From NCBI GenBank assembly GCA_027620075.1, contig JAQCEY010000007.1, positions 43,764 to 107,763 on the forward strand: a stretch of DNA of 64,000 nt, given 5' to 3'. Shown one piece after another: positions 22,274 to 29,200 of the stretch. Origin of the DNA: Pseudomonadota bacterium (GTDB lineage Bacteria; Pseudomonadota; Alphaproteobacteria; Rickettsiales; UBA6187). The notes under the pieces were generated by a model. The model was given only the letters and a program-made list of their open reading frames with translations, was not told where the DNA came from and ran no database searches. The translations under genes and the position numbers were made by a program. The number at the start of each line of letters is the position of its first letter. Positions within the stretch are counted from its first letter, which is position 1.

Positions 22274-23920
22274 ATGTTGCATCCAGAGTTAGAAGAAGAA
22301 AAAGAACAAAATTACCCAACAGTCAAAAAAATGCTAGTTGGTAATTATGGCCAAGTGATTGGTGATATTGGAGACGCAACTATTCGGGCAGAAGAAAGTG
22401 GCAACCAAGGTTATGGATTTCATGTTACCTTACCTGGGAGTGAATCTCCTGATTTTTTCTTTAAGATTGAAAAGCAGCTACAAGAACGCCAGCCACAGGA
22501 AGAAAAACGGCTTGGAGAAGTGCGTGAATTTATGGAATCACTGCATAATGCAGCTAGGGAATCTGAAAAGTCTGGTAAACAGCCATCACTAGACTCAGCT
22601 AAATTTATTAGAGATAATTCTAAAGGGCTTATTGGAGCTTTATCTGGAGAAGGCATGCCAGAAGGTTTGGTCGGTCATGAAATAAGCCTACAAACTAATC
22701 TTGGGGCGTCAAAGCTTCCTTTAAGGGAAGACATGTTAGAAAAAAGAGAGAATATATCATACGATGAACAAAAGGAAAATCCCGACCCAAAGTTTGAACG
22801 TAGCACCAGGCAGGCTATTGACGTTAATCCATCTAATTTTCCATCCTATATAGTAGCAGAAATGGCTGGAACTTTGGGTAAATTGCATAATGCTGGCCAA
22901 GATAGGGAATTTACATCTAGCAATGCAGAATTCAACGAATTGGTTGGAGATGGTTCTGTGTTTAGACAAAAATTTGAAGAATTCTCTAGAATATCTAGTC
23001 CAACGAAGAGCCAAAGTAAAGTTATAGAGCTAATGGGTCGTCTGGCAGAAGAAAAAGAAAGCGGGAAGTTAGAGGCATTTACAGATGTGCTTGATGACTT
23101 TGACAAACTTCCTCAGACTAGAGCTGTTCATCATGATGCTCATCCTTTAAATTTTCTTCAGAAAGAAAGTGAACAAAAGGAAATGGCAATACCAGGAGAA
23201 GAACAAATTGTACCGATTGATATGGAAGACTTATCAATTGGACCACGCATTGAAGATTTAGCCTTACTAATTGGACAAACCAAGATTGACCATAATGCAT
23301 TAAGGCCTCATGAAGATATAAATCCAATGGGTAAAAATATAGATCAGGAGACTGCTACAACCATTCTTCGTGGCTATGAAGAAGTGGCATCTCCTCTTAC
23401 AGAGGCTGAAATTAAACATATGTTTAATTTCAATGCTGGTAGCCGTGCCCGTGATCAATTAGCCAAAATAGCTCAAATAACTCCCGAACAATTTGAAGCA
23501 AATAAATTTGATAGTCTTGCGCTTTATAGAGGTGGTACATTTGATAAAGCTGTAAGTTTTTCGCTGGAAAAGCCACTTGCGGTATTTGAGGAATCAAAAG
23601 AAAATGATTTAGTTCCACTTATAACGAAAGCTAGAAAACAGATACGTGATAGCCAACAAAATTTAGATGGCCTCGACCTTGAAATAAAGCCTGGTCAATT
23701 GGGCAGAATAGGTCAGAAAGAAACTTCGTATGGAAAAGCTGCATCCAGTCCCACGTCAAAAGATGGGGTTCCAGGCTTAGATCAAGAATCCATGGGGGAA
23801 TTAAACGAAATAAAAGGAGGACTTCAAGATTTTATGGAAAAAGAACCAAAAGAAAAAAATCATACCCATAAAATGGCAGATCTGAATTTGCGTTCTTCTG
23901 GTGGCTCAAGAGAAATTTAA
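22274..23920 (+). CDS. tail-array protein P2: APH/kinase-fold head plus shared tail
   Basis: HHDAHPLNFL (catalytic loop) and PIDMEDLSIGPRIEDLA (DxD-type). AGGAG RBS. Tail ends SSGGSREI. Confidence 0.7.
   Translation: MLHPELEEEKEQNYPTVKKMLVGNYGQVIGDIGDATIRAEESGNQGYGFHVTLPGSESPDFFFKIEKQLQERQPQEEKRLGEVREFMESLHNAARESEKSGKQPSLDSAKFIRDNSKGLIGALSGEGMPEGLVGHEISLQTNLGASKLPLREDMLEKRENISYDEQKENPDPKFERSTRQAIDVNPSNFPSYIVAEMAGTLGKLHNAGQDREFTSSNAEFNELVGDGSVFRQKFEEFSRISSPTKSQSKVIELMGRLAEEKESGKLEAFTDVLDDFDKLPQTRAVHHDAHPLNFLQKESEQKEMAIPGEEQIVPIDMEDLSIGPRIEDLALLIGQTKIDHNALRPHEDINPMGKNIDQETATTILRGYEEVASPLTEAEIKHMFNFNAGSRARDQLAKIAQITPEQFEANKFDSLALYRGGTFDKAVSFSLEKPLAVFEESKENDLVPLITKARKQIRDSQQNLDGLDLEIKPGQLGRIGQKETSYGKAASSPTSKDGVPGLDQESMGELNEIKGGLQDFMEKEPKEKNHTHKMADLNLRSSGGSREI
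23660..23920 (+). repeat. shared tail module, copy 2 (A'+B)
   Basis: NLDGLDLEIKPGQL...AASSPTSKDGVPGLDQESMGELNEIKGGLQDFMEKEPKEKNHTHKMADLNLRSSGGSREI. Confidence 0.85.
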
Positions 23921-23939
23921 CAGACTAAAGAGGAAAAAC

Positions 23940-27393: not shown

Positions 27394-27406
27394 TAAGGTA
27401 ATATTT

Positions 27407-29200
27407 ATGAACGAGCATAAGAGTGGTTCAGAAAAGCCAATAAAAATAGGAATTATAACGCCTTCAAGTAATTGGGCATGCGATGTTGAAATGAAGGGTG
27501 AAAAGTATAATGGAGCAAAGTCGGATTATACAAGAAAGGTTGCATCAGCAACATTACAATCACGCGGCTATGAGGTGGTAGGTTTAGAAAAGTACCCTAT
27601 GGTTCCACCAACACAAAGTGAAAAATTAGGTTTTGTTCCCCAGTCACCATATTCAGCCGCAGCAGAATTTATAAGAATGGTTCATGAGGATAAACCTGAT
27701 GTGATGTGGGCGATGGATGGTGGAGCGTATGCTACAAACGTAGCACAGCTTTTAGATGAATATGCAAGTAATCCAACAACGTTCCTTAAGCAACATGCCG
27801 TTGACCCATTAACGGGCCTTCAGCTAAATTATGGTGCAGGTGCAGAAAAAGGACTTGAAGATGCAAAAAAGCCATTGATTGTAGGTTATAGTGATATAGG
27901 AAATATTCAAATATCGATGAAAAAACACGGATTTCCTTCAATGTACGCACCAACGGTTGGATTGGGCCATCCACTTGATCCTGGTTATCCAGAACCTGAT
28001 CACAAAAAATTTGCAGAAAGAATGAGAGTATGCACCAGTGGCATAAGTAGCAATAAATTGATGGATGAAAGTCATGGTTTTAAAGGGATTGATTCAACAT
28101 GGGGAGCAATGCTTGAGCCTACATTTGAACAAATAAATAGATTTGTTAGAGAAAAAAGCTCTGGATTTCAAATAGAATCGAAACATGTAGCTGATTCAGG
28201 GCATTCATTAGGTGGCGAAATCTGGGCTGGCTCTACATCTATTATTGCAAATAGTTTAGGAACAAGTTGGGAAATTGATTTTCCTAGTGACACTATACTC
28301 ATGCCAGAACTTATGGGACAAGTGGACTCAAAATTTATTGATAATATTGATCTATTAGCAGATACAGGAAAACTTAGTAACGTCAAAGCAATTGTTTTTG
28401 GTGTGGTACCAGGAGAAGAGCGCAATAAAAAAATTGCTCAGATTAAACAAAAAGCTCAAGAATATGATATCCCCTTCTTTATTCTTCCTGAAGAACATAC
28501 TTTCGGTCACTTTGATCGAGATAAGTATGATCAATTTGTTCCCTTACTCAATGGCCAGCGAGCTAGCATTACTAGAACTTCCGAAGGAATTCAATTGGAT
28601 TTAGGAGATAGAATAATTGGAGGGTTAGAGGACACTATTCCTTCTCAAAAAAGAATGCGAAATAAAAGTGGTATTACGCCTATTTCTGAGAACTCTTCAT
28701 CTATTGAATATAGTTTGAAAGATTTATGGAAACTAAAAGCAAGCAGTTCAGTTGACTTTTCTGGACAAGATTTGGTTGTTAACCTGGATGAACAAAGTTG
28801 CTCTATGGGAAGTCCAGAAATATATCTTCAGGGCATTCAAAGCGCAGGTGTTTTTGATAACACCAATTCAATAAAATTTGTTGTATCTGATAAAGATCCT
28901 CAATATTTGAATTGCCTAGATTATTTTACTGAACAACTTAAAACATCCGGCAGAAATATTGGTGATATTTCTGTAATAGACTTAAATAAAATCCAACAAC
29001 TTGATGCCCTTGATTTGGCCACCATGGCTGATTTATCTCCTGAGGTTTTGAGGGAGGCAAAAGCATTGGGTGCAGAGATTACTGCAAAGCCACCATTACA
29101 TAGAGAAAGTAAAGATCTAGAAGAAAAAAGTAGTTGGGTTGATAAAAGCGCGAGGACTAACAAAAACAACCTAACTCCCGGTGGTTCCCGGGATATATAG
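27407..29200 (+). CDS. tail-array protein P5: S66 LD-carboxypeptidase-like head plus extension plus shared tail
   Basis: PIKIGIITPSS, nucleophile-type GYSDIGN, later FGH. ATG at 27407 is preferred to the track start 27377. Tail ends TPGGSRDI. Confidence 0.7.
   Translation: MNEHKSGSEKPIKIGIITPSSNWACDVEMKGEKYNGAKSDYTRKVASATLQSRGYEVVGLEKYPMVPPTQSEKLGFVPQSPYSAAAEFIRMVHEDKPDVMWAMDGGAYATNVAQLLDEYASNPTTFLKQHAVDPLTGLQLNYGAGAEKGLEDAKKPLIVGYSDIGNIQISMKKHGFPSMYAPTVGLGHPLDPGYPEPDHKKFAERMRVCTSGISSNKLMDESHGFKGIDSTWGAMLEPTFEQINRFVREKSSGFQIESKHVADSGHSLGGEIWAGSTSIIANSLGTSWEIDFPSDTILMPELMGQVDSKFIDNIDLLADTGKLSNVKAIVFGVVPGEERNKKIAQIKQKAQEYDIPFFILPEEHTFGHFDRDKYDQFVPLLNGQRASITRTSEGIQLDLGDRIIGGLEDTIPSQKRMRNKSGITPISENSSSIEYSLKDLWKLKASSSVDFSGQDLVVNLDEQSCSMGSPEIYLQGIQSAGVFDNTNSIKFVVSDKDPQYLNCLDYFTEQLKTSGRNIGDISVIDLNKIQQLDALDLATMADLSPEVLREAKALGAEITAKPPLHRESKDLEEKSSWVDKSARTNKNNLTPGGSRDI
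28997..29200 (+). repeat. shared tail module, copy 5 (A+C)
   Basis: QLDALDLATMADLSPEVLREAKALGAEITAKPPLHRESKDLEEKSSWVDKSARTNKNNLTPGGSRDI. Only a few substitutions relative to copy 4. Confidence 0.85.

Follow-up and report, generated by a model that had tools for sequence, protein, structure and literature searches.

In the X-Tfe effectors of Xanthomonas and Stenotrophomonas, the C-terminal module serves recognition by a type IV secretion system, and many of the enzymatic heads joined to it are active on peptidoglycan. A C-terminal segment is also known from the Pseudomonas toxin ExoS, whose residues 420–430 occupy the amphipathic groove of the eukaryotic 14-3-3 proteins, with D427 bonding to Y127 and Y130, and whose LDLA motif (residues 426–429) is conserved in ExoT, AexT and VopT (PMC6141617). 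The most critical ExoS residue for 14-3-3 is Leu428, and the artificial R18 peptide binds via WLDLE (PMC9523730); an isolated ExoS 11-mer suffices for the binding (PMC9295147). For basal Rickettsiales, it is debated whether the secretion systems serve to kill bacteria or to manipulate eukaryotes (PMC9352585, PMC11077975). We here analyze an array of five co-directional genes, whose products are called P1 to P5 in gene order, and one gene remnant in an aquatic metagenome-assembled genome (MAG; 2.35 Mb, 39% G+C, 99.9% complete), the relatives of which are labelled Rickettsiales at NCBI. The array lies at 20318-29200 of the window, i.e., the whole stretch of 64,000 nt that was analyzed (C10:43764-107763 of the MAG). 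A sequence-only reading had proposed that the enzymatic heads of these proteins are either antibacterial effectors or a detoxification set; it missed what we regard as the most informative feature, namely that the core of their common C-terminal tail is, at the sequence level, identical to the LDLA-box of ExoS.

All five array proteins terminate in this polar tail of 65–125 amino acids (aa), and within the genome the tail is confined to their genes. The 12 species of the family have it at three further places, and it is present in 19 of 1.84 billion representative proteins, being C-terminal in all of them. When the P4 and P5 tails are compared, 22 of 70 codons differ synonymously only and 7 change the amino acid; purifying selection therefore acts on the tail peptide. 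Three blocks are conserved, and the best conserved of them is a near-invariant amphipathic core, LDALDLA(T), with an LDLE variant in P2 and P3. The pattern [LIF]-[DE]-[AG]-[LIP]-D-[LI] was found in 20 of the 22 tails; among these 20, D at +4 is present in all, L at +5 in 19 and L at +3 in 18, and position +6 is A in 15 and E in 3. The string LDALDL occurs in four open reading frames (ORFs) of the genome, all in tails, against 0.14 expected.

When a profile of eight tails was searched against all PDB sequences, the only sequence returned was ExoS, from the structure of its 14-3-3 complex (6gn0_E), with an E-value of 1.3. In the alignment, LDALDLatmadlspev of the tails is placed on LDALDLASKPEPSGEV of ExoS; LDALDLA and the subsequent S..EV are equally spaced in both, P1 having SGEV at the latter position, and LDALDLA of the tails is identical to ExoS residues 423–429. 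Most tail cores have LDLA as in ExoS and a minority LDLE as in R18, and the most conserved tail residues are exactly the ExoS residues that contact 14-3-3. Of 12 papers containing the string LDALDL, at least seven deal, according to title or abstract, with 14-3-3 or the ExoS peptide, whereas a literature search gave no relevant paper on type IV effectors that bind 14-3-3 independently of phosphorylation. The identity between the tail core and the LDLA-box points to a eukaryotic target cell.

The reading that we favor, to which we give somewhat less than an even chance, is that the array encodes exported effector enzymes acting in a eukaryotic cell, with 14-3-3 as a handle or chaperone; we infer all three of its elements, i.e., that the proteins are exported, that they bind 14-3-3 and that they act in a eukaryote. 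The proteins would be exported via a system reading C-terminal signals (rvh-like type IV or type I), the conserved tail end SW[VI][DE][KR] ... G[AS]R[ED][IV] being the candidate export signal, and would act within a eukaryotic cell, probably that of a protist, whether host or grazer. There the core LDALDLA(T), or LDLE in P2 and P3, may dock in the phosphopeptide groove of 14-3-3 like the LDLA-box of ExoS and ExoT, and this docking would recruit 14-3-3 as a chaperone, activator or scaffold. A generic host-factor handle could join any enzyme, and such a handle would explain both the presence of one tail on unrelated heads and the lack of a need for immunity genes. The favored reading thus accounts for the modular tail on unrelated heads, the absence of Sec signals and the absence of immunity genes, the details of which are given below.

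The array is situated between a LysR gene and a convergent GNAT-GNAT-APH(6) block, and is composed of the following features.

20318..22252, + strand: P1, 644 aa; N-terminal extension of ~170 aa, divergent S12 head and A-type tail
21995..22252, + strand: tail of P1 (residues 560-644); LDALDLA core at 22007-22027, C-terminus GGAREI
22274..23920, + strand: P2, 548 aa; APH/kinase-fold head (PF01636) and tail
23654..23920, + strand: tail of P2; LDGLDLE core from 23663, C-terminus GGSREI
23901..25637, + strand: P3; S12 beta-lactamase-fold head (PF00144) and long tail
25257..25637, + strand: tail of P3; LDALDLE core from 25266, followed by an insert of ~45 aa, C-terminus GGAREI
25652..25969, + strand: remnant of an S12 head, 105 aa, tail-less; SxxK region intact (GSTTKT), without a Pfam hit
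25945..27393, + strand: P4, 482 aa; S12 beta-lactamase-fold head (PF00144) and B-type tail
27181..27393, + strand: tail of P4; LDALDLA core at 27193-27213, C-terminus GGARDI
27377..29200, + strand: P5; S66 (LdcA/MccF-fold) head (PF02016, PF17676), extra domain of ~130 aa and B-type tail
28988..29200, + strand: tail of P5; LDALDLA core at 29000-29020, C-terminus GGSRDI

The likely true start of P3 is the ATG at 23940, giving a protein of 565 aa, and this 565-aa form corresponds to the database entry P0014; that of P5 is the ATG at 27407, giving 597 aa. The remnant at 25652-25969 has 37% identity over 81 aa to the N-terminus of P4 (BLASTP), and shows that heads have been gained and lost within the array. 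Neighboring genes are separated by 13–21 nt or overlap, and the ORF list of the window contains no plausible small or immunity-like ORFs between them, which bears out what had been stated from the sequence alone.

Further features of the tail were examined, and several other roles were set aside. A Pfam scan of the tails at E up to 10 gave nothing, XVIPCD and BID included, and RTX repeats were absent from the array proteins and their tails (Pfam). The last 25 residues have a small net positive charge, as counted by eye. Among the ORFs of the genome, only the array proteins end in G[AS]R[ED][IV], and this terminus was thus rejected as a general secretion signal of this organism. A ubiquitin- or Pup-like GG terminus was rejected because a single Gly is conserved across the tails, and by inspection [AS]R[ED][IV] fits none of the PTS1, KDEL, PDZ-binding and mode-III 14-3-3 endings. 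We also rejected cargo of encapsulins or microcompartments, because PF04454 and PF00936 are absent from the 99.9%-complete genome while the controls were positive.

The five heads comprise three S12 serine hydrolases, one APH-fold kinase and one S66 peptidase, and their catalytic motifs are intact. Four of them had been recognized before as APH-like, beta-lactamase-fold (two) and S66 proteins, and Pfam agrees: P3 and P4 reach PF00144 with 83.7 and 53.2 bits (cut-off 27), P5 reaches Peptidase_S66 PF02016 with 30.1 bits (cut-off 25) and Peptidase_S66C PF17676 with 35.1 bits (cut-off 23.7), and P2 marginally reaches APH PF01636 with 24.7 bits (cut-off 23.2) over residues 191-333, i.e., the C-lobe only. 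The head of P1, which had not been recognized, adds the third S12 member; P1 has no Pfam hit of its own, and we assign it to the S12 fold because the MAG protein P0003, which is 41% identical to it over the full length, passes PF00144 (34.4 bits) and because P1 has SMGK at 188, YRN, and GHDG at 506. The corresponding motifs are SCTK, YSD (Asn replaced by Asp) and GHDG in P3, and SIAK, YSN and GKNG in P4; SxxK, Y-x-N and [HK]-x-G are retained also in the related array L031 described below and in metagenome relatives. For the S66 heads, a MAFFT alignment of six sequences, the ordinary S66 protein of this genome and five tailed heads, shows an invariant Ser-Glu-His triad (columns G-x-S-D, E and G-H), and the Ser of P5 aligns with the nucleophile region of PA5198. 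P2 has a beta3-type Lys in FFFKIE, HHDAHPLN (HxDxxxxN) at 286 and a Mg-binding Asp in IDMED at 315, and these motifs are conserved in P0005 (80% identity), P0006 (43%) and the distant P0017 (PF01636, 38.8 bits). Loss of catalytic residues, which the sequence-only reading had named as a refuting observation, was thus seen neither in the five heads nor in their relatives.

Although the families can be assigned, the heads are far from any characterized enzyme. Among solved structures, P3 is nearest to an alkaline D-peptidase (4y7p, E 6e-6), with FmtA next; P4 has weak matches to ClbP, LovD and PBP-type chains, P5 matches PA5198 with an E-value of only 0.4, and the PDB search with P2 returned nothing meaningful. 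None of the heads reached an NCBIfam equivalog for resistance, beta-lactamase/PBP or LdcA. The S12 heads gave sub-threshold hits to AmpH, PBP4B and AcmB (19–27 bits against cut-offs of 266–550), P5 gave zero NCBIfam hits, and the sole hit of P2 was a weak one to the protein kinase PRK11768 (19 bits), no APH resistance model being matched.

The tail had been regarded as an add-on to ordinary enzymes that have tail-less paralogues nearby. It is indeed a modular add-on, whereas the second part of this view does not hold. When each head was searched against all 5,766 ORFs of the genome (BLASTP), nothing was found at E<1e-3 apart from the common tails, and recent paralogy with the nearby tail-less genes was rejected on this ground; the tail-less S66 at 8377-9288 (PRK11253, 149.7 bits, below the cut-off of 378) is 22% identical to the P5 head (MAFFT), and this gene and the APH genes nearby are distant family-mates only. 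In 5.8 billion proteins, the P2 head has three relatives, all of which are tailed, and the P5 head has one close relative (P0011, 42%, tailed) and one remote relative of 361 aa; the tailed S12 heads fall into several mutually divergent groups with 20–28% identity to P4. The heads form rare and divergent clades, the only detectable close relatives of which are also tailed.

Among the ~22 tail-bearing proteins found world-wide, the heads are S12 in nine, S66 in five, APH in four or five and S9/DLH in one, so that the previously noticed theme of S12, S66 and APH families proved to be real; the remaining two or three have sub-cut-off Pfam matches only (one CheD-like, and one or two TraB/PrgY/GumN-like). 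P0019 (867 aa) and P0020 (393 aa) have in common an N-terminal domain with weak TraB/PrgY/GumN-like similarity (21.8 bits, below the cut-off). P0019 has this domain fused N-terminally to an S66 head with the tail; in P0020, the LDALDL block is absent and the tail is reduced to its distal part.

Two loci of related organisms, from a metagenome labelled MEHR18-1, can be compared with the window. L031 (1-10953) has a parallel five-gene array, composed of a P2 orthologue (80%), three S12 genes and one S9/DLH gene, all tailed, with gaps of 3–5 nt, and followed by the same GNAT, an EamA gene, APH(6) and a small gene. L014 (1-5037) has a lone P1 orthologue between ANT and APH(6), and its NUDIX gene is 75% identical to that of the window. 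The APH(6) and the second GNAT of the right flank recur beside both of these, and the locus resembles a cassette-turnover hot spot within conserved flanks (NUDIX, GNAT, APH(6) and the small gene). In G001, a genome of the same genus, there was no tail hit, and at the DNA level neither the array nor the island adjacent to it upstream has a match, except that the small genes at 31.2-31.9 kb and short, conserved segments of the ABC genes do match. In more distant genomes the tailed genes are found in the context of a TonB receptor, an aminotransferase, an integrase/Fic island and purD-sodB. The last of these is the contig of P0006 (JGI 3300050046, 414 kb), where a tailed P2-like gene is located between purD and sodB, far from a detoxification island; on the same contig, the ATP synthase operon contains a tail-less S66 gene between the genes for its gamma and beta subunits. 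The tailed S66 P0011 is found in L033 (1-15835, JGI 3300020672) on an apparent integrative island with a tyrosine integrase, Fic, RhuM-type, NUDIX and DUF8370 genes, and because of this location, tail genes appear to travel also on mobile elements.

Concerning localization, no Sec-signal-like N-terminus or membrane segment was found in any of 20 tail-bearing proteins by a Kyte-Doolittle scan, which is not a dedicated predictor. A periplasmic beta-lactamase or PBP needs a Sec signal, and because the S12 heads are without one, such a role in the producer is unlikely; the export route, if any, must for the same reason be Sec-independent. Type I and type IV systems both read C-terminal signals, and both are present in this genome. 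It encodes VirB11-VirD4, with VirD4 at C9:238311-240134, plus two VirB4 paralogues, the rvh pattern of Rickettsiales, and the type IV system can on these genes be classified as rvh-like; a genuine type I secretion HlyD (412 bits) is encoded at C6:18939-20195 (-). An ankyrin-repeat ORF (C6:11069-12706) is located ~6 kb from this HlyD gene, and the region is possibly a type I effector locus, as in Ehrlichia.

Ankyrin repeats and CaaX boxes are hallmarks of bacteria placing proteins inside eukaryotic cells. The genome has at least nine ankyrin-repeat ORFs, one of which, a 590-aa ORF outside the window (C7:136976-138748, - strand), terminates in CCVIM, a CaaX prenylation box. Five further ORFs have CaaX-like ends after polar stretches (C2:107486-108337, C3:10239-11936, C5:106558-107385, C7:378427-379323 and C11:14930-15496). 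The CaaX-ended ORFs suggest a set of host-prenylated effectors as in Legionella.

Several points weigh against our favored reading. As homology, the ExoS match is not significant (E 1.3) and is to be taken at the level of a motif only, and it was not recovered when the P1 tail was used as a single sequence, this PDB search giving no hit. Since an exact 6–7-mer match somewhere in PDB is expected about once by chance, the weight of the motif rests on which residues were matched, a judgment made post hoc. There is one Leu before the first Asp in the tail and two in ExoS, a 14-3-3 motif alone would need far fewer residues than the tail has, and to our knowledge, all LDLA-box proteins known are type III-secreted ADP-ribosyltransferases. 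The class 1b nuclear-export pattern [VI]xxLxxLxL fits 14 of 20 tails; a nuclear-export reading of the core would imply a eukaryotic target all the same. AlphaFold2 models were unusable, with a mean pLDDT (predicted local distance difference test) of 36.6 for P2 (4-sequence alignment) and 40.7 for P4 (9-sequence alignment). A host-associated lifestyle is not established for this MAG, which is aquatic and from a water metagenome. An ATP/ADP (TLC) translocase was found in none of 12 family genomes, in a search in which the control genomes were also silent, and the lifestyle of an energy parasite was rejected on this ground. Furthermore, the usefulness of D-peptidase, LD-carboxypeptidase and APH-type heads inside a eukaryote is unexplained.

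The flanking genes, which had been cited in support of a detoxification role, are as follows.

19268..20170, - strand: LysR-family regulator, divergent from the array; best NCBIfam match IlvY (235.8 bits, just under the cut-off of 246)
29206..31093, - strand: GNAT (Acetyltransf_3), GNAT (Acetyltransf_8) and APH(6)-type kinase by Pfam, convergent with the array

Although the LysR gene faces an S12 gene, its product is IlvY-like, and regulation of the AmpR-AmpC type was rejected for this reason. Of the GNAT, APH and efflux genes that had been described on both sides, the two GNATs and APH(6) on the right were verified. On the left, the ABC exporters have their best scores against MsbA-type models, and several further ORFs resemble GNAT, APH-fold, EamA-type, NUDIX and methyltransferase proteins by eye; the profile scan of this flank beyond the ABC exporters covered two APH-fold ORFs and the S66 gene only. 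An insertion sequence (IS)-type transposase ORF of 276 aa (window 9825-10655), integrase-core-like by eye, interrupts the upstream run of modification and efflux genes.

Among the alternatives to be weighed, the tail may be a purely bacterial module for export or recognition, either a type I signal or a site for docking to the type IV coupling protein, so that the match with ExoS is a coincidence and the target may be environmental polymers, other bacteria or eukaryotes. We judge this unlikely, though it is the most probable of the alternatives. In its favor, the three conserved blocks exceed what a 14-3-3 motif needs, the terminal G[AS]R[ED][IV] is found in the genome only in the array proteins, systems of both types are present, and the ExoS match has an E-value of 1.3 and was lost with a single sequence. 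What it leaves to coincidence, however, is that the best-conserved tail residues are the 14-3-3 contacts of ExoS (PMC6141617, PMC9523730); moreover, with an E-value limit as loose as 10, no Pfam match links the tails to a known export-signal family, and no membrane-fusion or outer-membrane gene was recognized beside the array, the local ABC exporters being MsbA-type by best score. Another alternative, one of the two functions proposed from the sequence alone, is contact-dependent killing, in which the rvh type IV system would inject the proteins into competitors and these would trim or cut the stem peptides of their peptidoglycan in an X-Tfe-like manner. Variable enzymatic heads on a conserved C-terminal module are indeed the architecture of X-Tfe, the S12 and S66 families include DD- and LD-peptidases, the structure closest to P3 is that of an alkaline D-peptidase, and it has been suggested that basal Rickettsiales kill bacteria with their rvh system (PMC9352585, PMC11077975). 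Nevertheless, immunity-like genes are absent beside the tailed genes in the six loci examined, the tail matches neither XVIPCD nor any other Pfam family, APH-fold and S9/DLH heads are outside a cell-wall theme, the genome seems equipped for eukaryotic targets by its ankyrin repeats and CaaX box, and the partner known for the core motif is a eukaryotic protein; we consider antibacterial delivery the least probable of the readings discussed here.

The other of the two functions that had been proposed, detoxification, takes the heads as drug- or xenobiotic-modifying enzymes belonging to the GNAT/APH/ANT/efflux island, with the tail localizing, assembling or exporting them. The same resistance-like island (NUDIX, APH, ANT, GNAT, EamA and APH(6)) is present in three related organisms, the S12, S66, APH and possibly Ere/TraB-like families all contain antibiotic-inactivating members, and the catalytic motifs are intact. 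The sharing of the island, however, reflects common descent, i.e., synteny among close relatives, and is not independent evidence; the same-genus G001 gave neither a tail hit nor, apart from the small genes and short ABC segments mentioned above, a match at the DNA level to the array or the adjacent island, and the tailed genes are not beside detoxification genes in more distant genomes. In addition, S12 heads without a Sec signal cannot protect periplasmic targets, none of the heads reaches a resistance equivalog in NCBIfam, compartment shell genes are absent, and the conserved LDALDLA core would be left without a role. We regard detoxification of this kind as rather improbable; neither of the two functions proposed from the sequence alone has gained specific support, and both are minority options.

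A speculative combination, to which we assign only a small chance, is that the tail serves as a portable address with two parts, an export signal at the C-terminus plus a 14-3-3-capturing LDLA-box, and that the array is a detoxification or immune-evasion kit delivered by a symbiont rather than a weapon. Host 14-3-3 would be captured as the protein emerges, to refold, activate or scaffold the head, and enzymes of cell-wall and antibiotic chemistry (D-peptidases, LD-carboxypeptidases, APH-type kinases and esterases) would have been repurposed for the protist cytosol, where they might destroy muropeptides or the toxins of other microbes to the advantage of the partnership.

Should the tail bind 14-3-3, it would be the first LDLA-box outside type III ADP-ribosyltransferase toxins, and a host-factor handle would have been found as a transferable module on unrelated enzymes in an environmental Rickettsiales-like lineage, supplying testable effector candidates for the basal uncultured relatives of Rickettsiales. 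The array is also a caution that hits to beta-lactamase, APH or LdcA families do not equal resistance or cell-wall genes when export signals are absent and eukaryote-directed motifs are present.

In the heads, the array proteins resemble well-known enzymes, each of them with clear differences. The S12 heads have PF00144 and the SxxK/YxN/[HK]xG motifs in common with AmpC/AmpH, ADP, FmtA, ClbP, LovD and EstB; unlike these hydrolases they are very divergent (PDB E 6e-6 at best), have no signal peptide, and have extra N-terminal regions and the tail. LdcA is the murein tetrapeptide LD-carboxypeptidase and MccF confers self-immunity to microcin C, both being cytoplasmic and without a signal peptide; P5 resembles LdcA (PA5198) and MccF in having both S66 domains above the cut-offs and the Ser-Glu-His triad, and differs in its weak PDB match (E 0.4), the lack of an LdcA equivalog, the added domain of ~130 aa and the tail. 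P2 shares the HxDxxxxN loop, the Mg-binding Asp and the beta3-type Lys with the aminoglycoside and macrolide phosphotransferases (PF01636), whereas it aligns in the C-lobe only, has a long insert between the lobes, matches no resistance model, and has three relatives that are all tailed.

As modular delivery systems, X-Tfe/XVIPCD and the Bartonella Bep proteins (BID plus positive tail) with other VirB/D4 substrates are the nearest. The array has in common with X-Tfe diverse heads on one C-terminal module without a Sec signal, and differs from it in having no XVIPCD match, no adjacent immunity genes, an rvh-like type IV system with duplicated VirB4, and other head families. It shares with Bep and the VirB/D4 substrates a modular C-terminal delivery module on different enzymes and a slightly positive end, whereas the array tail has no BID match, is shorter and is seemingly largely unstructured. 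The likeness to ExoS and ExoT of Pseudomonas, AexT of Aeromonas and VopT of Vibrio lies in the identical LDALDLA, which follows the catalytic domain within a C-terminal segment that is polar and probably flexible, and in producers without an immunity gene; to ExoS specifically, it extends to S..EV at the same spacing and to a conservation that mirrors the 14-3-3-contacting residues. Unlike these toxins, the array has S12, S66 and APH heads in place of ADP-ribosyltransferases, shows no evident type III system or N-terminal signal, and has a tail of 65–125 aa with two further conserved blocks that is common to unrelated heads encoded in tandem; the likeness is one of the tail motif alone and not of family membership.

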